This document shows, one piece after another, positions 1-14,508 of a stretch of DNA of 14,508 nucleotides (the stretch's first letter is position 1; each line of letters starts with the position of its first letter). The position numbers and the translations under genes were made by a program. The notes below the pieces were generated by a model. That model was given only the letters and a program-made list of their open reading frames with translations. It did no database searches and was not told the DNA's origin. The DNA is from Gemmatimonas sp. (lineage in GTDB: Bacteria; Gemmatimonadota; Gemmatimonadetes; Gemmatimonadales; Gemmatimonadaceae): contig JANNVQ010000047.1 of assembly GCA_031414535.1 (NCBI GenBank), positions 1 through 14,508 of the forward strand, written 5' to 3'.

Positions 1-567
1 GGAAACGTATAGCGTCAAGACTGCGAAGTAGTTGTTAATGTAGTCAAGCATACAAACTGACGCATTGACTTCAGAGCTCAATTGACCAACCATCACCGTA
101 AAGAAAATCATAGACAGACCGGCTCCAAAAAATATTTTGTCGATCATTTCTGGCATGTTCCAAAGTGATGCGTCTTCGAAAGCATGTCCGGCGTTGTTGA
201 TGGCAAAGACAACAAGCACAACCATGAACTGACGGCCCAACAAGAAACGTTTGAGATTGTCACCCGTGTAGGCAACTACATTGCACAAGTAGGCTTTTGG
301 GTGCGTCTCCTTGTACAGTTCTCTGTCCACGATTTCAAGACCAACGATAGATGCTTGGCTTCCCTCAATCATCGTAAGCCAAATGATACAAACCCAAATA
401 ACAACAAATGCAAGGGCAGGGTGAACATCTTCCGCGATCTTTGTTTGTCTGGTAAAGATAACACCCATAATCAGAGCAATTGAGAATATGAGTAGAAGCG
501 TCGAGTAGAGCGACTTGAAAAAGTAGAAGAAGTCGAAGCCCTCGGCATCTGGGTTACGATGTGACAT
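1..567 (-). CDS. SIT: Silicic acid (silicon) transporter, diatom SIT family; 5' part, continues off the left edge
   Basis: Hand translation of complement(1..567) gives 189 codons with no stop: MSHRNPDAEGFDFFYFFKSLYSTLLLIFSIALIMGVIFTRQTKIAEDVHPALAFVVIWVCIIWLTMIEGSQASIVGLEIVDRELYKETHPKAYLCNVVAYTGDNLKRFLLGRQFMVVLVVFAINNAGHAFEDASLWNMPEMIDKIFFGAGLSMIFFTVMVGQLSSEVNASVCMLDYINNYFAVLTLYVS. SIT hallmarks are EGXQ (366-355), GRQ (237-229), GQL and CMLD (54-43), with alternating hydrophobic helices. The ATG is in AAA-ATG context, and the nearest upstream in-frame stop is at 666-664 with no ATG in between. Absent from the supplied ORF track. Confidence 0.95.
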   Translation of the reverse strand, partial: MSHRNPDAEGFDFFYFFKSLYSTLLLIFSIALIMGVIFTRQTKIAEDVHPALAFVVIWVCIIWLTMIEGSQASIVGLEIVDRELYKETHPKAYLCNVVAYTGDNLKRFLLGRQFMVVLVVFAINNAGHAFEDASLWNMPEMIDKIFFGAGLSMIFFTVMVGQLSSEVNASVCMLDYINNYFAVLTLYVS

Positions 568-2070
568 TTTCGAAGCGTGTTTTCGTTCTTTCGATCTGTT
601 TACACCGTGATTATTAGTTGTGATAGAAGCCGCTGTTTTTGCGCTTCTGAAGTAATTGTGAGATCATTAATGGCGAAATGGCATGGTAAAATGAATGCAC
701 AATATCGAAGAAGAACTAGCGATTGACCTGTCGGCCGAAAGTCTATGAAATATGCTCTGCCGCTAAAATAACAGTTAAAAATGATAATCTCATTATCATT
801 GCAAGTATTTACCGTTATGGTGAGCGTCCAACAGCTATTATAACTCCAATGAGAGAAATAAAGAGCAAATAGTGAAGTTGCGACGGTTGCGGAGGCTGTT
901 ATGTTTACCGTTACGGTGGACTTCGGACCCTTTCTGACGGGTAACCCCGGCATCAAGAAGTCTACAGAACAGTACAAGTAGTACCGTCCTTGTACTAGCT
1001 CTCTGGCTAGCTAGAGAGAGTATACTGGAGTACGTCTATACAAGTACTGGCGGGAAACTTGTGTGATCCGTAATTAGCGGTTACGAATGCCCACGAACGG
1101 AAGCGATGATACATCAAAAATGCTCGCACAATATATAAAATAAAAAATTATTTTAACATATTCACAATATTATCTACAGTACAAGTAGGAATTCTACGAC
1201 GGTATCAGGACAATGAATGACGTATTCATTCGTACCTGGTACTTGTACTAGAGTAGTCGTGTTCGAAAAGGGAATCACGGGAGTACTTGTGTACTTGTAC
1301 AAGTACTTGAAGCGATGAGAAGTACTAGTACGGTACAGTACTACCGGTAGTACAAGTACCTGCACAGCTAGTACCTACAAGAGTACTTTGTACTTGTACT
1401 CTTGTATAAATATTTTTTCATTCCGATCGTCCGCACGGACATTAAGGCCTGTCCGTTCGAGTACTTATTGGACGTCTTATGGAATCCGCCGTCTTAAAAA
1501 GGATTGGCTACTGAAACCGTGCCGCCACATCGAGGACACACTGTGAGAAAGCTTTTGATGTAAGACATATTGCATGAAAGGCAAAAATAACTTTTATTGA
1601 ACAAATCAGAATATGTGAAACAGAAATGAAAATATTGACATATCATAACAAATAAACTTCATTTTTTGTACTTGATTCTTTGTGAGAGTTTTGAGACACT
1701 TCATCTTTCTACTAGAGGTTTATGTAGTGCAAACTTCAATTCCAATCATTAAGCTGAGATAGCTAGTCAACAATCAGAAAAAATACTCAGAGGCTAGCTA
1801 TGGCTATGGATGTGGCACTGCGTGGCACTTGTAAACAACAATTTTTTGTTTTTGTCAAGATTGTGTATAGCGAATCCTGAGCATTTCAAAAATCCCCGTA
1901 CAACTTCACGAACCTGATTTCTTCGTACGATCCCCAGTATTCAGTACTGTTAAAGTACAAGTAAGAAATGCCTAACACCCGCGCGCGGTCAGGCACCCGT
2001 AGTTATCCACAAACGACTTTAAGTAGTTGTAACTCCGGAACGACTTGCTCGAATTTCAAAATAAAACATA
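568..2070. other. AT-rich eukaryote-like non-coding region upstream of SIT (promoter/intergenic)
   Basis: No convincing ORF. GC is low (e.g. 13/60 in 1621-1680), with poly-A/T runs and low-complexity GTAC tracts. It lies 5' of the SIT start codon. Confidence 0.75.
972..1400. repeat. GTAC-rich low-complexity tract with short perfect palindromes
   Basis: About 23 GTAC tetramers counted by hand in about 430 bp. Perfect 16-bp palindromes GTACTTGTACAAGTAC (1291-1306) and GTACTACCGGTAGTAC (1338-1353). Near-palindrome CTCTCTGGCTAGCTAGAGAG (999-1018). Confidence 0.8.
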
Positions 2071-3992
2071 GTCGTCACTAGGCCGGGTAAATCATCGGTG
2101 CCATACGCCCGCTGCGCCTCGGCCACCTTCTTGTGCTTCTTGCCCCGCGTGCGTTCCGCGTCGCGCTCGGTGCTGCCGTCGCGCGCATCGGCCACGCGCG
2201 TGGAGAAGCGCACTTGGTCAAGCGACTTCGTCACGCCAGCCGGCACGATACCGTGGTCCTTATTGTGCGCTTCTTGCACGGCGCGACGGCGCGCCGTCTC
2301 GTCCAGGCAGCGCTGCATAGAACCGGTGATGCGATCGGCGTAAAATATGGCGCGTCCTTCCACGTGGCGTGCAGCGCGGCCCGTTGTTTGAATCAGCGAG
2401 CGGTCCGAGCGCAAGAAACCTTCTTGGTCGGCGTCGAGAATCGCAACCAGCGAGACTTCGGGGAGGTCAAGGCCTTCGCGCAGCAGGTTGATGCCGATGA
2501 GCACATCGAACTCACCGAGCCGCAGGCCACGAATGATTTCCATGCGCTCAATGGTCTCGATGTCCGCGTGCATGTAGCGGACGCGCACACCCACCTGCGA
2601 GAGATAATCTGAGAGATCTTCCGCCATCCGCTTGGTGAGCGTCGTGACGAGCACGCGCTCGCCCTTCTTCTCGCGCAGGCGAATCTCGTGCAGGAGATCA
2701 TCCACCTGCCCTTTCACCGGGCGAATCTCGATGATGGGGTCAATGAGTCCCGTCGGACGGATGATCTGCTCGACCACCACGCCTTCGCTGAGCTTGAGTT
2801 CGAGCTCGCCGGGCGTGGCGCTCACGTTCACCGCCCGCGGGGTCAGCCCCAAGAACTCATCGAACATCAGCGGGCGATTATCGAGCGCGCTGGGCAGGCG
2901 GAACCCGTACTCGACCAGCGTTGTCTTGCGCGCACGATCGCCATTGAACATCCCGCCAATCTGCGAGAGCGTGACGTGCGACTCGTCCACGACGACGAGG
3001 AAATCGTCGGGGAAATAGTCGAAGAGCACCGCAGGGCGCGCGCCAGGGGGACGACCCGCGATGACGCGCGAGTAGTTCTCGATGCCGGGGCAGGTGCCGA
3101 TCTCGAGCAGCATCTCGATATCGAAATTCGTACGGCTCTCGAGCCGCTGGGCCTCCAGCAACTTCCCCGCTTCCTTCAGCACCTTCAGGCGATCCACCAA
3201 CTCGAGACGAATCTCTTTCACGGCCTTCTGAATGGTCGGACGGTCCGTGACGAAGTGCTTGGCCGGATAGATCGCCGTGCGCTGCAGCGGAGCAATGGTG
3301 TGGCCCGTCAGCGGATCAATCTTGCTGATCTTCTCAATCTCATCGCCGAACATCTCGATGCGCACGCCCTGTTCTTCATACGCTGGCAGGACTTCCACCG
3401 TGTCGCCACGGACACGAAACGTGCCGCGCTCGAAGGCCACATCGTTGCGGCCATACTGAATAGCGACCAATGCCTTGAGGATGTCGTCGCGGGCGATGGT
3501 CTGCCCCACATGCATCTGCACCATGTTGGCGCGATACGTCTCGGGATCGCCGAGTCCGTAGATGGCGGACACCGTTGCCACGATAATTACGTCGTCGCGC
3601 TCCATCAGGCTCGACGTCGCGCGCAGGCGCAAACGGTCAATGTCTTCATTGATGGAGCTGTCCTTCTCGATGTACGTGTCCGACGAAGGCACGTACGCCT
3701 CCGGCTGGAAGTAATCGTAGTACGAGACGAAATACTCGACGGCGTTGTTGGGAAAGAATCCCTTAATCTCACCGTAGAGCTGTGCCGCCAACGTCTTGTT
3801 GTGCGAGAGTACCAGCGCCGGCCGCCCCCACTGCGCGATGACATTGGCCATCGTCATCGTCTTCCCCGAGCCTGTGACGCCAAGCAAGGTCTGAAAGCGA
3901 TCGCCGCGATTCAAGCCAGCGACCAGCTCCGCGATAGCGCGAGGCTGGTCGCCGGCGGGGGCGAAGGGGGCTTGGAGGTCGAAGGATGCCAT
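2019..3992 (-). CDS. uvrB: Excinuclease ABC subunit B, 3'-truncated at about 2071; the last ~16 codons read into foreign DNA
   Basis: Motifs [10 protein letters not shown] (Walker A), [22 protein letters not shown] (beta-hairpin region), [30 protein letters not shown] and GRAAR. The C-terminal UVR coiled-coil is absent. ATG at 3992 preferred over GTG at 3998. Confidence 0.96.
2060..2085. other. Eukaryote/bacterium junction (composition break inside the uvrB 3' end)
   Basis: Abrupt switch from AT-rich (...TTTCAAAATAAAACATA) to GC-rich sequence (42/60 GC in 2101-2160). The UvrB-like sequence ends at about DDLPGLVTT and is followed by the non-UvrB tail [16 protein letters not shown]. Confidence 0.85.
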
Positions 3993-4002
3993 AGGCACAA
4001 TG

Positions 4003-4053
4003 GACGGAAGACGGATGACGGATGCAACCAGCGTCCGTCATCCGTCATCCGTC
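4003..4053. repeat. Heptamer-array inverted repeat 1, (GACGGAW)3 hairpin
   Basis: Left arm GACGGAA GACGGAT GACGGAT GC (4003-4025), loop AACCA, right arm GC GTCCGTC ATCCGTC ATCCGTC (4031-4053). 23-bp arms with 2 mismatches. Confidence 0.93.
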
Positions 4054-4057
4054 GGGT

Positions 4058-4501
4058 TTACATCCCCGGGAACAGCGCCCGGTCCCACGGGATGCCGCCT
4101 AGGATTAGGGAGAGCGTCATGAAGGCAAAGACCACGCCAACCCTGTGCCGAACAGCATCGGTGGGACGGCTCTTCGCGGTGATGCTGCCGATCGTAATCA
4201 GGATGGCAGCGAGGACCATCATCGTCGGGTGCTCGACGACGACCTTCCGAAGTGCCGGGTCGGCCATCGTGGCCTCCATATCGCGCATCGCCGCCTTTAC
4301 GACGGGGCTGTTCATCAGCAGCAGCAGTCCGAGCAGCAGCTGGAGGTGGACGCTACCCATGAACATCGCCAGAGCACGGCGCGCGGCGACGAAGGGCCGG
4401 TCACCGCCGAGGCCTTGGGCAGTGCGCACGACAGCCAGCACGCCGAGGACGAGCACGACCCAGCGGAGAACGTTGTGCGTATGAAGGAGAGCGCTGTACA
4501 T
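4058..4501 (-). CDS. Conserved 4-TM membrane protein of unknown function, possibly cytochrome b-like
   Basis: 147 aa with four hydrophobic segments, H7/H9, H52, an EHP motif (H91), H119 and a C-terminal IPW. Same strand and codon style as its neighbours. Confidence 0.85.
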   Translation of the reverse strand: MYSALLHTHNVLRWVVLVLGVLAVVRTAQGLGGDRPFVAARRALAMFMGSVHLQLLLGLLLLMNSPVVKAAMRDMEATMADPALRKVVVEHPTMMVLAAILITIGSITAKSRPTDAVRHRVGVVFAFMTLSLILGGIPWDRALFPGM

Positions 4502-4506
4502 GGGGA

Positions 4507-4635
4507 GACGGGACGGATGACGGAGGACGGATGCTGACCGCGGACGTAGGGAAAGTTAGTCGCGGATGGCAATTTTGGTGCGCCGGAAAGCCTTGGCCAC
4601 ACTTCATCCGTCATCCGTCATCCGTCTTCCGTCCA
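4507..4635. repeat. Heptamer-array inverted repeat 2 with an inner spacer of about 70 bp
   Basis: Left arm GACGG GACGGAT GACGGAG GACGGAT G (4507-4533). Right arm C ATCCGTC ATCCGTC ATCCGTC TTCCGTC CA (4605-4635). Confidence 0.9.
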
Positions 4636-4645
4636 GTTTCAGGGA

Positions 4646-6832
4646 CTAATCTTCTTCCGCACTCAACCGTTCGCGCCGTGCCACCTCTGAGACTCCCTTC
4701 ACCCTCCGCGCCGCCTTCACGATGCGCTCGAGATGCGCGAGGTTCTCGACTTCGACGATTGCCGCCCCGGAGAATCGGCCATCCGTCGTTTTGAGCTCTA
4801 ACGAGCGGATGTCAGTGCCTGTGCCGCTGACGGCGGCGGCGAGGTCCGCGTAGAGCCCACGCCGGTCCGTGCCCTCGATTGCGAGTCGCACGGTAAAGCG
4901 CTCCCCCGCTGTTTCCTGCCAATCAATCTCCAGCCGGCGCTCCGGCTCGTGCACCAGCGTCAGGAGATTTGGGCAATCATCACGGTGAATGCTCACGCCG
5001 CGGCCGCGCGTCACGTATCCCACCACCTTGTCGCCCGGTACTGGTTGGCAGCACTGCGCATAGCGCACAAGCAAACCGTCGGCTCCCTGGATGCGCAGGC
5101 CTTTGGAATGTCTTGGCCCGCGCATACGGTCAATCAGGCGCTCAATCGGACTCGGCCGCAGGGCCGCATTGTCCGCTTCATCGAGGTCCGGATAGATCGC
5201 CTTCAGAAGCTGGGTGATGTTGATGTCACCCGAGCCGATGCTCGAATAGATGTGGTCCGGCCCATTCAGCTTGAGGGCCTCCACGCCGCGCGCGAGTTCC
5301 GCGTCAGTGAGCTTGGTGTGCTTCCGGCGCCTAAGTTCCCGGTCGAGAATCTCCTGACCCACGGTCACGAAGGTCTTCTGCTCTTCGTTGCGGAGCCATT
5401 GGCGAATCTTATGCCGCGCGCGGCCGGTGTGCACGTGGGCGAGCCAGTCGCGGCTCGGGCGTGCATTTGGCGAGCGGATGACCTCAACAGTCTCTGAATT
5501 CCGCAGCTCGCGCGAGAGCGGCACAATGCGCCCATTCACGCGCGCGCCCTGCGTGTGCAAGCCAAGCTGCGTGTGGACCGCAAAGGCGAAGTCAATCGGG
5601 GTCGCGCCCTTGGGTAACTGAATCACATCCCCATTGGGCGTGAAGACGAAGATTTCGTCCTGATACAAGTCGAGCTTCAGAAACTCGAGGAACTGATCCG
5701 GCGTCTCGGCGTCAAGCTGCAACTCCAACACCTGGCGGAACCACGCGAGGTGACGATCCAGATCCTTGCCGCCTTTGCCGTCGCCCTTGTAGACCCAGTG
5801 CGCCGCGATGCCGTACTCCGCCGTGCGATGCATGTCGCGCGTGCGAATCTGGATTTCAAACAGCGTGCCTTTGGGCCCGAACACCGTCGTGTGCAGTGAC
5901 TGATAGCCGTTACTCTTGGGCGAGGCGATGTAGTCCTTGATGCGCTCCTGCAGCGGCGTCCACGAGCCGTGAATCACACCCAGCGCGTGATAGCACTCGG
6001 GGATATTCTCCACCGTTACGCGGATGGCGTAAAGATCGTAGATTTCGTCGTAGGGCTTCGCACGCTTCTCCATCTTCTTGTGGATGGACCACAAGTGCTT
6101 GGGCCGCCCGCTGACCTCGTGCACCACGACCCCAGCCTCCCGCAGGCGACGCTCCAGCGGCTCCGCCATCTCGGACGTGAGCTTGTCGCGGTCGGCCCGC
6201 GTCTGCGCCACCATCTTGGCGAGCGTGCGGTACTCGTCCGGCTCCAGCCACTTGAAGGCGAGATCCTCGAGCTCCGCTTTCACGGAGTTCAGACCGAAGC
6301 GATGCGCCATCGGAGCGTACAGGTCGCGCGTCTCGAGCGCAATCCGGGTGCGCTTCTCCTCGGGCATCCACTCCAGCGTCCGCATGTTATGCAAACGGTC
6401 CGCGAGCTTCACCAGAATGACGCGCACGTCCTTGGCCACGGAGAGCAACAGCTTGCGATAGCTCTCCACCTGCCGCTCTTCGCGCGAAGCCATGGGCAGA
6501 TGGCCAATCTTCGTCAGGCCATCCACAATCTGCGCGACCTCACGCCCGAACTCGCGCTCCACATCCTCAACCGTGTACGCGGTGTCCTCTACCACGTCGT
6601 GAATCAGCCCACTGGCCACGGTGATGGAGTCCAACTGCAGATCGGCGAGAATCTTCGCCACCTGCACGCAATGCGTCACATAGGGGTCGCCGTTCCGGCG
6701 CGTTTGCCCCGCATGCGCCTTCTCAGAGAAGCGGTAGGCCTTGGCCAACAGGTCCACGTCCAAGCGCCCCGTCGCCGAATCGGCGGCCAGGTCCCAGTTG
6801 GGGATGATCTCGGAGAGGACGGGAGCGGACAC
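4646..6832 (-). CDS. rel: Bifunctional (p)ppGpp synthetase/hydrolase (long RSH, Rel/SpoT family), about 728 aa
   Basis: Intact HD hydrolase (HAGQTR, HDVVEDT, KLADRLHNMRTL). Synthetase motifs GRPKH, DLYAIR, RIKD (the RxKD type of bifunctional enzymes), KSNGYQSLH, EIQIRT and GIAAHWVYK. Also TGS, a CC...H...C zinc finger and an ACT domain. Start placed at GTG 6832, because the ORF-track extension to 7378 runs through repeats and radC. Confidence 0.95.
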   Translation of the reverse strand: MSAPVLSEIIPNWDLAADSATGRLDVDLLAKAYRFSEKAHAGQTRRNGDPYVTHCVQVAKILADLQLDSITVASGLIHDVVEDTAYTVEDVEREFGREVAQIVDGLTKIGHLPMASREERQVESYRKLLLSVAKDVRVILVKLADRLHNMRTLEWMPEEKRTRIALETRDLYAPMAHRFGLNSVKAELEDLAFKWLEPDEYRTLAKMVAQTRADRDKLTSEMAEPLERRLREAGVVVHEVSGRPKHLWSIHKKMEKRAKPYDEIYDLYAIRVTVENIPECYHALGVIHGSWTPLQERIKDYIASPKSNGYQSLHTTVFGPKGTLFEIQIRTRDMHRTAEYGIAAHWVYKGDGKGGKDLDRHLAWFRQVLELQLDAETPDQFLEFLKLDLYQDEIFVFTPNGDVIQLPKGATPIDFAFAVHTQLGLHTQGARVNGRIVPLSRELRNSETVEVIRSPNARPSRDWLAHVHTGRARHKIRQWLRNEEQKTFVTVGQEILDRELRRRKHTKLTDAELARGVEALKLNGPDHIYSSIGSGDINITQLLKAIYPDLDEADNAALRPSPIERLIDRMRGPRHSKGLRIQGADGLLVRYAQCCQPVPGDKVVGYVTRGRGVSIHRDDCPNLLTLVHEPERRLEIDWQETAGERFTVRLAIEGTDRRGLYADLAAAVSGTGTDIRSLELKTTDGRFSGAAIVEVENLAHLERIVKAARRVKGVSEVARRERLSAEED

Positions 6833-6838
6833 GCACGA

Positions 6839-6868
6839 AGTATAGGGAGGAGCGAAGAGCGATGGAAA
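6839..6868 (-). promoter_or_regulatory. Candidate sigma70 promoter for a leaderless rel transcript
   Basis: Minus strand reads TTTCCA-N18-TATACT-N6-GTG (TATACT at 6844-6839). No Shine-Dalgarno sequence before the start. Confidence 0.5.
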
Positions 6869-7032
6869 GGAGCGAGGTTTGAATAACGAGGTTTGAAAAG
6901 CGAGTTTGGAGGTCCGAAGGTCAAAGGAGATGACCCTCCCCACCTTCCCCTTCCTCCCTTCCCGTCTTCCGTCCCTATCGCTCTTCGTTACTTCGCTCTT
7001 CCATTTCGCTTTTCGCTCCTCGCTCTTCGCTA
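6850..7032. repeat. Degenerate inverted heptamer arrays (GAGCGAR / YTCGCTC family) around a purine/pyrimidine-skewed core
   Basis: Left (6850-6918): GAGCGAA GAGCGAT GGAAAG GAGCGAG GTTTGAA TAACGAG GTTTGAA AAGCGAG TTTGGAG GTCCGAA. Right (6977-7032): ATCGCTC TTCGTTA C TTCGCTC TTCCAT TTCGCTT TTCGCTC CTCGCTC TTCGCTA. Includes CCGTCTTCCGTCC (6962-6974), the reverse complement of 4002-4014. Confidence 0.85.
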
Positions 7033-7710
7033 GAGGAGTCCTAGCTCGGCAAAGGACACATACCGCCCTCTCCCAATCACCACATGATCGTGAATCGGGA
7101 TGTCCAAGAGCCGTCCCGCCGCCACGAGTTGGCTCGTAATGGCTCGGTCGTCTGAGCTTGGATTCGGGTCCCCACTGGGATGGTTGTGGACCAGCACGAT
7201 ACTGGCCGCTCGCTCGGCGATGGCTTCGCGGAACACCTCGCGCGGGTGCACGAGGCTTGAGTTGAGGATACCGCGGCTCACCAGCACGTCGCGCTCCAAC
7301 CGATGCTGCGCGTCCAACACGGCCACGTGGAACTCTTCCACGGTGAGCGCCTCCAGCCGCGGACCGTAGTAGCGCCACACATCGCGCGGCCCCCGCAGCG
7401 GCTCGCCTTCATCCGTGGCCTCCGCCGCGAGGCGGCGTCCGACCTCCAGCGCCGCGTGGATGGCCAGTGCCTTGGCCTCCCCAAGCCCATGCACGGCCGT
7501 GAGCGTGGCCACCGGCATCTGCATCAGTCGCCGCAGCGAGCCCCCAGCACGGTGGAGGATCTGTTGCGCCGAGTCTGAGGCTGAGTGCCCCGCTCCCCCG
7601 GTGCCGATGAGAAGCGCAAGCAGTTCCGTGGTGGTCAGCGCCTGCGCACCGTGTGCACGAAGGCGTTCCCGCGGGCGGTCAGCGGGTGGGAGTTCGAGGA
7701 TGGAGGGCAC
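7030..7710 (-). CDS. radC: RadC / UPF0758 family protein (HhH plus JAB/MPN domain)
   Basis: PRERL...GAQALTTTELLALLIGTG N-terminus, GLGEAKA helix-hairpin-helix, VHPREVF, HNHPSGDPNPSSDD JAMM motif and DHVVIG. Start is GTG 7710 or TTG 7719. Confidence 0.95.
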   Translation of the reverse strand: MPSILELPPADRPRERLRAHGAQALTTTELLALLIGTGGAGHSASDSAQQILHRAGGSLRRLMQMPVATLTAVHGLGEAKALAIHAALEVGRRLAAEATDEGEPLRGPRDVWRYYGPRLEALTVEEFHVAVLDAQHRLERDVLVSRGILNSSLVHPREVFREAIAERAASIVLVHNHPSGDPNPSSDDRAITSQLVAAGRLLDIPIHDHVVIGRGRYVSFAELGLL

Positions 7711-7775
7711 GCGGGGCAAACTGCGCGCTCATCAGGCTGGCGCTGACACCAAACTATTGCTCACGTCAGCAAATG

Positions 7776-7838
7776 GACGGAAGACGGATGACGGATGCGA
7801 ACCGCCCTGCAGTTCGCATCCGTCATCCGTCTTCCGTC
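7776..7838. repeat. Heptamer-array inverted repeat 3: perfect 27-bp stem, 9-nt loop
   Basis: GACGGAAGACGGATGACGGATGCGAAC (7776-7802) is the exact reverse complement of 7812-7838. 7772-7798 is identical over 27 nt to 3999-4025. Confidence 0.95.
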
Positions 7839-7843
7839 ACCAG

Positions 7844-11107
<3,264 letters not shown>

Positions 11108-11114
11108 TCTGGCT

Positions 11115-11699
11115 TCACTCGGTGGTAGTACGGTATAGCCCGTGAGCAGCGATATAGTCGGCGACGGCATCGGGCACGAAGCCCCGAATGCTGCGTCCAG
11201 CTCCCACACGAGTGCGGATCTCCGTGGCGGAGATGTCCACGCGTCGCGTCGGCAGCGAGCGGGCCCGGAAGCCCGTCGGCAGCGCCGGAGCTTCCGATCC
11301 ACGTCCCGCCACTGCAACCTGCACGAGCAAGGCTAATGCCTCAGGCTCGCGCCATTGTGGCAGGGTGGCCGCGGTGTCTGCTCCCATTAACAAGAACATT
11401 TCAACGTCTGACCGGGCAGCCTGTATAGCCCGCACGGTATCAATGGTGAAAGATAACCCACCACGCTCCACCTCCGAAGCATTCACTTGCAGTCGGTGAT
11501 CTGCGCTTGCGAGACATGCGGTCATCGCCAAGCGGTGAACGGGCGCCGACATCTCCACCCCACGCTTCAGGGGTTGGCGAGCAGCGGGTACCAGGATGAG
11601 CTCGTCTAGCTCGAGGGCGTCCACTGCGTCTAGGGCCAGCAACAGGTGCCCGTTGTGCGGCGGATCAAAGGTCCCGCCGAGGATCCCTACGCGCGGCAC
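11115..11699 (-). CDS. nadD: Nicotinate-nucleotide adenylyltransferase
   Basis: GILGGTFDPPHNGH (HxGH motif), SFTIDT, LLMGAD, LPQW and ISATEIR. Start placed at GTG 11699, 8 nt after the bamD stop. Confidence 0.95.
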   Translation of the reverse strand: MPRVGILGGTFDPPHNGHLLLALDAVDALELDELILVPAARQPLKRGVEMSAPVHRLAMTACLASADHRLQVNASEVERGGLSFTIDTVRAIQAARSDVEMFLLMGADTAATLPQWREPEALALLVQVAVAGRGSEAPALPTGFRARSLPTRRVDISATEIRTRVGAGRSIRGFVPDAVADYIAAHGLYRTTTE

Positions 11700-11707
11700 A
11701 CGCGGGC

Positions 11708-12484
11708 TCAGGGCCGGACGACCGCGGTGGAGTCGGCGGTCGGCAGTCGGCACGTGCTGAGGACGTCGGCATCCGTGGGGAACCCGGCACGCAACGCCGA
11801 GCAGAGCTCCGCGGCGTCTTCCTTGTAATCGAGCGCCGGCAACCGATAGACGCGCACCATCTGGAGCATGGCCAAGCGCGCCTTATCCGTGTTGGGATAG
11901 TTCGCCACGACGTCGCGGAAGTAGAGAATGGCGGAGTCGTAGGCCCGGCGACGCACATAGTGCATTCCAGTCTCGAAGTCCTTCTCAGCCAGCCACTCAT
12001 CGAGTTCGGCGAGGGCCTTGAGGCTAGAGTCCGCATAGGGCGAATCGGGGAATACGCCAGTCACGAGGCGAAACTGCGCTTGGGCAAGAATCGCGTACTG
12101 CGGATCAAGCGAGGGGCGCCGCCACATCTCGCGATACGAGCGTGCTGCCATGAACATCGCGTCGTCGGCGAGGCTGTCGTTGGGAAACTGCTCAGCCAGC
12201 CGATTGAAGCTCTGCGCCGCCAACAAGCGCTCGTCGTTGTTCCGTCGCGCCTGCCCGAGATACCAATGCGCGAGCGGCAAGAGGGTGTCGCGCGTCGGCA
12301 AATCGAAGGTCAGACGCTCGAACGCCGTCACCGCGTTGCCCCACTTCTCGTTGTCGTACTGCGCCTTGCCCGCCGCGAACAGAGATTGCGCGGACGGAAA
12401 GTTCCGCACATTGAACGGGCGGAAGCATCCCCCGAGCAGGGAAAGCGAGAGGAGAGCGACCAGCGACTTGCGAAGTGCGGACAT
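11708..12484 (-). CDS. bamD: Outer membrane protein assembly lipoprotein BamD (YfiO/ComL-like, TPR)
   Basis: Signal peptide with lipobox LGGC (Cys20), TPR-like helices, and the patterns FPDSPYA, LAEKDFETGMHYVRRRAYDSA and YPNT. Confidence 0.88.
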   Translation of the reverse strand: MSALRKSLVALLSLSLLGGCFRPFNVRNFPSAQSLFAAGKAQYDNEKWGNAVTAFERLTFDLPTRDTLLPLAHWYLGQARRNNDERLLAAQSFNRLAEQFPNDSLADDAMFMAARSYREMWRRPSLDPQYAILAQAQFRLVTGVFPDSPYADSSLKALAELDEWLAEKDFETGMHYVRRRAYDSAILYFRDVVANYPNTDKARLAMLQMVRVYRLPALDYKEDAAELCSALRAGFPTDADVLSTCRLPTADSTAVVRP

Positions 12485-13437
<953 letters not shown>

Positions 13438-13441
<4 letters not shown>

Positions 13442-14508
13442 TCGCCCCCCCGACCGATGGAGCGATACGTGAATCCCTGCGCCTTCATCTTCTCGGGGTC
13501 ATACAAATTGCGGCCATCAATTACAACGGGTTGCTTGAGCTCGGTCTTCAAGCGTACAAAATCCGGAAACCGATACTCATTCCAGTCCGTGACCACCACC
13601 ATCGCATCGGCGCCCTGCGCGGCCTCATAGCTTGAGCGCGCGTAGCCGATGGTGTTCCCGATACGACGTTCCGTCTCGTGCATCGCCGCCGGATCGTGCG
13701 CCACCACACTCGCACCCGCACCCAGCAATTGCTCGATGAGCACGAGCGCCGGGGATTCGCGCATGTCGTCGGTGTTGGCTTTGAAGGCCAAACCCCAGAG
13801 CGCGATGCGCTTCCCCCGCAGTTCGCCGCCAAAGACCTCGGACACCTTCTCAAACAGGCGCTGCTTCTGACGCTCGTTCGCCGACTCCACGGCGCGCAGG
13901 ATGCCCATCGGGGCACCGCGCTCCTCAGAGGTGCGCATCAAGGCCTGCACGTCCTTGGGGAAGCAGGACCCTCCGTAGCCGGGGCCCGGGAAGAGAAACG
14001 CCGACCCAATGCGCGAGTCAGAACCGATGCCCTTGCGCACGAGATCCACGTTCGCGCCGACGCGTTCGCAGAGGTTGGCGATTTCGTTCATAAACGAGAT
14101 GCGGGTCGCGAGCATCGCGTTGGCCGCGTACTTGGTCATCTCCGCCGAGGGAATATCCATGAAGATGACCGGCTTGCCCGTGCGTACGAACGGCGCATAG
14201 AGCTCGCCCATCCGCTCGCGAGCGAAGTCCGTCGCTACGCCAATGACGACGCGGTCTGGCTTCATGAAGTCATCCACTGCCGCGCCTTCCTTCAAGAACT
14301 CCGGGTTGGAGCACATATGGAACGGTACTTTGGCGAGTGGCTTGATGACCGCCGCCACCTTGTCCGCCGTACCCACCGGGACGGTGGACTTGGTGACGAC
14401 CACCACTTCCGTGGCAGCATGCTTTCCGATGGTCTCTGCCACGGCGAGCACGTACTTCAGGTCCGCCGAGCCATCCTCATCGGGGGGCGTGCCGACGGCG
14501 ATGAAGAT
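13438..14508 (-). CDS. ugd: UDP-glucose 6-dehydrogenase; 5' end lies outside the window
   Basis: The frame is open to the window edge ([20 protein letters not shown]...). Motifs [25 protein letters not shown], catalytic GGSCFPKD and [15 protein letters not shown]. Confidence 0.95.

Follow-up and report, generated by a model that had tools for sequence, protein, structure and literature searches.

The first 2072 nucleotides of the window (the whole stretch of DNA analysed, 14,508 nucleotides, which is the entire contig C47 of a Gemmatimonas genome) are almost certainly eukaryotic DNA that an assembly error fused at 2072/2073 to a bacterial uvrB gene, and thus ordinary contamination. This DNA carries the N-terminal half of a silicon transporter (SIT) whose donor was very probably a diatom (Table 1). 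The preliminary description of the stretch had singled out a SIT on the same contig as bacterial secA and rel as its most unexpected element; the arrangement is true of the deposited contig but, given five lines of evidence for a chimera, very likely true of no chromosome.

Table 1 Features of the window, with positions counted from its first nucleotide
Feature	Position	Strand	Basis
Diatom-type silicon transporter, N-terminal half (TM1-4 and the beginning of TM5), truncated by the contig end	1..567	-	PF03842 E 6.3e-68, trees, model
CMLD motif, aa 172-175, after TM4, within CMLDYINNYF (aa 172-181)	43..54	-	Translation; motif per PMC6114903 and PMC4912633 (available text)
Glu166, where the TM4 xQxxxQx motif has its second Gln; subclade marker	70..72	-	Homologue alignment; motif per PMC5100055 (available text)
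SSEVNAS, aa 164-170	within 1..567	-	Translation
GQL motif, aa 161-163	within 1..567	-	Translation
First GRQ motif, aa 111-113, within LLGRQFMV (aa 109-116)	229..237	-	Translation
First EGXQ motif, EGSQ, aa 68-71	355..366	-	Translation
Upstream DNA from the same eukaryote, AT-rich (39.7% GC) and apparently non-coding, with polymorphism between assemblies	568..2072	.	Composition, Logan, Pfam, Rfam
Junction of eukaryotic and bacterial DNA, inferred mis-assembly point	2072..2073	.	GC step, C46/C47 divergence, two Logan unitigs
121 bases forming the start of contig C46	2073..2193	-	C46:1-121 is the reverse complement, 100% identity
Bacterial uvrB, cut at 2073	2073..3998	-	Pfam, composition, profile match
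Bacterial block, 63% GC	2073..14508	-	ORFs, Pfam, composition

The junction at position 2072/2073

The GC content of 1-2072 is 40.9% and that of the remaining window 63.1%, and the best-fitting change points lie at 2070-2095. By comparison, 1753 tiles of equal size from elsewhere in the genome all have a GC content of 55.4% or more. The tetranucleotide distance of 1-2072 lies 14.6 SD from the genome mean, beyond every one of the 1753 tiles. The bacterial block on the other side encodes UvrB, a hypothetical membrane protein, RelA/SpoT, RadC, SecA, a nucleotidyltransferase, a BamD-like protein, an NAD-dependent sugar epimerase/dehydratase and UDP-glucose dehydrogenase. Its uvrB reading frame in the window (2019-3998) closes with a short false tail encoded by the foreign DNA, and the displaced end of the gene was located on a second contig of the assembly, C46, which after the 121 bases common to both contigs continues into the UVR domain of uvrB, a stop codon, tsaE and tsaB. 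Counted from the Walker A motif to the stop, UvrB has 647 residues with the C46 continuation, the same length as in seven of eight relatives (649 in the eighth), and 620 in the window frame. The first 0.6-1.6 kb of C46 aligned 3′ of uvrB in the loci of all nine relatives, whereas window 1-2072 matched none of these nine loci, and a PF03842 profile search of 400 other genomes of the order returned no SIT (0/400). Positions 1-1711 of C46 represent the true continuation of the bacterial DNA, running past tsaB to an acetyltransferase that we take to be RimI-like, and C46 and C47 from 2073 onwards can be merged.

The junction was also followed in Logan assemblies, which consist of contigs and unitigs rather than raw reads, for four runs that a single study made on freshwater sediment; one of them, X1, may derive from the source sample. 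In X1 a unitig of 2457 nt, and in X2 one of 616 nt, was identical to the window down to 2073 and then diverged for 2030 and 192 nt, respectively; we infer that these overhangs correspond to C46. No bridge across 2072/2073 was present among the 32 pieces and 15 joints listed, and a rare bridging contig may exist among the further 1848 pieces, 22 joints and 390 loose ends. Depth, a weak proxy that gives no copy number, was 7 at 1501-1800, 20 on the SIT coding sequence and 0 at 2101-2400 in run X3 (analysed to about 68% of the run), and the ratio of flank to bacterial depth in the four runs was 0.9, 1.4, infinite and 2.9. The SIT gene itself was about 1.9-2.9 times as deep as its flank and occurred as several variant unitigs, a pattern consistent with eukaryotic alleles or paralogues.

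Eight contig pairs of the Gemmatimonas assembly overlap by exactly 141 bases, which we take to be the largest default k of MEGAHIT. In the available text of a MEGAHIT benchmark, 444 of 640 near-complete metagenome-assembled genomes contained an interspecies chimeric contig (bioRxiv 10.64898/2026.10.15.759294). The present case likewise has foreign DNA joined inside one contig, but this DNA comes from a eukaryote, and the proper continuation that it displaced can be recovered as C46. A chimeric read would explain the join, as would an error in the assembly graph where two organisms have similar depth, and the near-equal depth of both organisms in X1 (flank 12.3, bacterial side 13.2) would mask it. 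The genome scores 98.4% complete and 1.9% contaminated despite the foreign 2 kb; marker-based quality scores do not reveal the mis-join.

A 10-TM SIT residing in a bacterium would be a striking eukaryote-to-bacterium transfer. Diatom DNA would recently have entered the 3′ end of uvrB by recombination in some of the bacterial population, and the assembler would have kept both branches. Such an event would agree with a deposited contig that contains no N, with the presence of both branches at 2073 in one assembly and with the similar X1 depths of flank and bacterial side, but the evidence goes against it and we regard it as very unlikely. The unitigs of two runs cross 2073 unbroken and off the window with no listed piece bridging to it, the SIT side is present in X3 where the adjoining bacterial bins have zero depth, and the foreign DNA varies between assemblies through allelic variants and indels. 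Transfer would also have brought in about 1.5 kb of apparently non-coding DNA, with no mobile-element feature in 1-2072 by Pfam, composition and Rfam searches, would have destroyed the UVR domain of a repair gene, and would have introduced a family found in none of the 400 relatives. No target-site duplication was apparent at the junction, the longest word common to 1801-2072 and C46:122-600 being 8 nt.

Within the foreign DNA upstream of the SIT, the reading frame at 600-977 had no Pfam match, an Rfam search of 1-2300 returned nothing, and blastn of 568-2072 against 81 SIT loci gave no matches; the closest JGI SIT locus encodes a protein with 61% identity to the fragment. An exact search of JGI metagenomes for the 32-base pattern just left of the junction gave no matches. 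Tetranucleotide distance to the SIT loci, which are mostly coding, was uninformative, at 0.034 for the fragment versus a minimum of 0.035 for bacterial tiles. TpA erasure was likewise absent, with observed/expected ratios of 0.58-1.38. A patch at 951-1450 is rich in GTAC, with 23 occurrences in 500 bases where the bacterial genome has about 2.9 per kb. Depth at 1201-1350 was raised 2-4 times in all four runs, and the patch is thus probably a repeat dispersed in the eukaryotic genome.

On the bacterial side, run X1 showed numerous loose ends and hairpin-like variants of a short intergenic element at about 4001-4053, and a repeat family of about 141 nt occurs at many contig ends of the Gemmatimonas assembly; both resemble REP-type repeats at which the assembly breaks off. 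Between rel and uvrB, the minus strand at 4058-4501 encodes a 147-aa hydrophobic protein that had no Pfam match and has a second copy in a Logan assembly.

The silicon transporter fragment

The minus-strand frame at 567-1 comprises 189 stop-free codons from an ATG at 567 to the contig edge, and it is missing from the track of closed reading frames because it is called only when open ends are allowed. The frame and its EGSQ, LLGRQFMV, GQL and CMLDYINNYF motifs are present as the preliminary description had reported them. The assignment to the silicon-transporter family that it had proposed was borne out by the Pfam profile PF03842, which matched the frame with 229.8 bits (E 6.3e-68; curated cut-off 26.8) over positions 7-180 of the 513 in the profile, which represent the N-terminal region of the family. 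The TIGR00811 score of 194 lies below the whole-protein cut-off of 1048, as expected of a fragment. Fifteen of 16 single-base variants of the SIT coding sequence in other assemblies were synonymous, and the fragment is therefore a real gene under selection.

A homologue search among longer proteins gave 248 matches from 905 candidates; the best 120 of the 248, all PF03842, were used, and exclusion of one 1441-aa triple left a set of 119 long homologues. The E, G and Q of the first EGXQ motif, as well as the first GRQ motif, were invariant in 119/119 of them, and the EGXQ-GRQ pair of the fragment is placed at TM2/TM3. The N-terminus, which had been described as very short, is of typical length: the fragment has 17 residues before the equivalent of K18, the median in the homologues is 11, and 91 of the 119 have as few or fewer. 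Hydropathy analysis gave four hydrophobic peaks and the AlphaFold model of the 189-aa half was confident and helical (pLDDT 90.5), and these predictions are in line with TM1-4 and the beginning of TM5.

According to the available text of PMC5100055, a SIT comprises 10 TM segments with two EGXQ-GRQ pairs, and a SIT-L five with one pair. Window 1-2072 is present once in the Gemmatimonas assembly and no 500-nt window below 49% GC was found on any other contig, and the remainder of the SIT is therefore absent from the assembly. Logan records from other assemblies extend the frame by 194-680 nt beyond the contig end, and, by analogy with its 19 closest relatives described below, the full gene would encode a 10-TM SIT of about 515-575 aa. 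Characterised diatom SITs are plasma-membrane Na+/silicic acid symporters that use paired GXQ motifs (PMC4912633, available text). Since both halves occur in all 19 of these clade-mates, the same architecture and role can be proposed for the fragment's protein, which in its real host would work like the characterised transporters, by Na+/silicic acid symport.

Among 48,161 chains, the best structural matches of the predicted half were to the TM domain of the CNNM/CorC/CorB Mg2+ transporters (PDB 7cfg and 7m1u; Z 11.2 and 11.0, next 5.5), with an rmsd of 3.1 over 126-132 residues at 7-16% identity and with Z values below the caution line of about 13 for helical proteins. The same group occupied the top six rows of a Foldseek search of the predicted half, with weak E-values of 0.1-0.4, and a CNNM cluster was also a lead in the Atlas. 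On the basis of the model, this likeness would hold at the level of the family rather than for the fragment specifically, and it would be no evidence on substrate. A literature search for a SIT-CNNM likeness found none, and an AlphaFold study by Knight et al. may report it. With a full-length clade-mate as the query, a PDB sequence search found no solved relative and Foldseek with its whole model gave nothing meaningful.

Phylogenetic placement and the Glu-type subclade

A FastTree phylogeny was built from 125 domains (19 Glu-type homologues, 11 named sequences, 30 of the 97 other top matches, 45 of 123 representatives, 16 C-terminal halves, two SIT-Ls, the SIT of JACUUV010000112.1 and the query), and an IQ-TREE phylogeny, with SH-aLRT as support, from 48 of them. 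Both trees agree in placing the fragment among SIT N-terminal halves, nested inside diatom sequences and apart from the C-terminal halves and the SIT-Ls, and the N-half clade had an SH-aLRT of 97 in the IQ-TREE phylogeny of 48 domains. The patristic distance from the fragment was 0.45-0.71 to its clade-mates and 0.89-1.09 to the seven named diatom sequences printed, compared with 3.5-4.2 to the C-terminal halves and 3.6 and 4.2 to the two SIT-Ls, which form a thin outgroup. The named members of the homologue clusters were Chaetoceros, Eucampia, Extubocellulus, Ditylum and Licmophora; a lineage look-up returned diatom for Licmophora, and the other four are presumably diatoms as well. Diatom SITs have been divided into clades A-E (Durkin et al. 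2016; PMC5129515, available text). In trees with low backbone support and no labelled references for the Durkin clades, the fragment lies close to sequences from Chaetoceros and Licmophora and apart from the multi-unit, clade-B-like sequences at the base.

The fragment shares EGXQ, GRQ, GQL and CMLD with the N-terminal half of diatom SITs (PF03842, TIGR00811; Group 1 of Marron et al. 2016, PMC5100055, available text) and is 53-62% identical to 100 homologues with Gln at position 166 and 57-69% identical to the 19 with Glu. Its nesting among diatom SITs thus supports the proposed eukaryotic, diatom-type identity over that of a bacterial SIT-L. The reading of the gene as a native 5-TM SIT-L, bacterial or eukaryotic, can draw on the single EGXQ/GRQ pair visible in the fragment and on the few bacteria that carry SIT-Ls (PMC5100055, available text), and it is nevertheless extremely improbable. 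Identity is 24% to the SIT-L of Rhodococcus opacus B4 plasmid pKNR (WP_012691913.1) versus 70% to a 553-aa two-unit SIT, the 19 clade-mates are all proteins of 515-574 aa with at least two GRQ motifs, and the frame reaches the contig edge without a stop and continues in the Logan records. The Rhodococcus protein belongs to the same Pfam family and has a GRQ motif, but it has the single unit of a SIT-L, is without CMLD and is distant from the fragment in both trees. Its domain as a query recovered one partial relative and nothing more, and no clear SIT-L was found among the 150 representatives listed of 577. An aquaporin-like protein that PMC12506029 calls 'SySIT-L' was left out of the comparison.

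The Rhodococcus SIT-L itself (NC_012523.1, plasmid pKNR, 1162-2751 of the fetched locus) is a 529-aa protein with an N-terminal extension and a C-terminal domain of about 240 residues of no known kind; it gave a weak CNNM Pfam match (E 6e-4) and its gene is flanked by one for a radical SAM protein and one for an ABC transporter.

The donor is likely, not proven, to be a diatom, because the clade-mates come without a named organism and dinoflagellate and ciliate sequences are reported to nest among diatom SITs (PMC5129515, available text). Another silicifying protist such as a chrysophyte is an improbable source, and one that would affect the identity of the donor only and not the verdict of a chimera. 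It would be compatible with a subclade in which the 13 of 19 members looked up were environmental sequences, none with a named organism, and with trees that held no named chrysophyte, haptophyte or choanoflagellate SIT. Against it, the subclade is nested among the N-terminal halves of Chaetoceros, Licmophora, Eucampia, Extubocellulus and a Ditylum cluster, the Atlas clusters closest to a clade-mate are mostly Bacillariophyta, and chrysophyte SITs form a separate group or an outgroup in the available text of PMC5100055 and PMC5129515.

The preliminary description had given Gln as the residue of most SITs at the position where the fragment has Glu, and this is what the alignment showed: position 166 is Gln in 100 and Glu in 19 of the 119 long homologues, and the 19 form one clade with the fragment (support 1.0 in FastTree; 99.2 for the eight included in IQ-TREE). 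The TM4 xQxxxQx motif, described as broadly conserved (PMC5100055, available text), retains its first Gln in the fragment and has Glu as the second. The missing second Gln does not exclude membership of the SIT family, because Glu also occurs in these 19 homologues and in 15 published clade B rows of Table S1 of PMC5129515. At the symmetric position of the C-terminal half, 19/19 clade-mates have Arg and 98 of the other 100 homologues have Gln, and Ala replaces Gly in the second EGXQ motif (EA-x-Q) of 19/19 clade-mates versus 9/100 others. All 19 are two-unit proteins, and they count as one event. Among 80 more distant representatives, Glu was accompanied by Arg in 7/7 and Arg by Gln in 43, and Arg therefore does not require Glu. 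A motif search of the first 400 characters of the cells of Table S1 of PMC5129515 found EVNA in 15 rows, all clade B, and QVNAS in 198; QLSSE, WRLAG and EATQI were in no row and EAMQI was in 31. Each change therefore has a precedent, while their combination in a derived clade is absent from that marine-dominated set.

Meaning for the public record and the SIT family

The fragment is part of a new member of the known SIT family, and the immediate consequence of its origin is a correction to the public record, in which the Gemmatimonas genome would be counted as carrying a diatom SIT and a truncated uvrB. A second SIT was found in the prokaryote genome collection on JACUUV010000112.1, a short contig (3447 bases) of a genome labelled 'Clostridia bacterium'. 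The contig is filled by a complete 562-aa two-unit diatom-type SIT at 1186-2874, which groups with diatom SITs, and it is very likely a second case of diatom contamination.

For the family, it is conceivable, though doubtful, that the fragment represents an undescribed diatom SIT subfamily with a rebuilt transport site, in which the TM4/TM9 Gln pair has become Glu/Arg, possibly forming a salt bridge, and the second GXQ has become AXQ. Substrate, affinity or the coupling to Na+ would then be altered in such transporters, perhaps because they are adapted to fresh water low in sodium. The Glu/Arg subfamily is a modest lead, and may offer a natural variant for probing the coupling of sodium to silicic acid.
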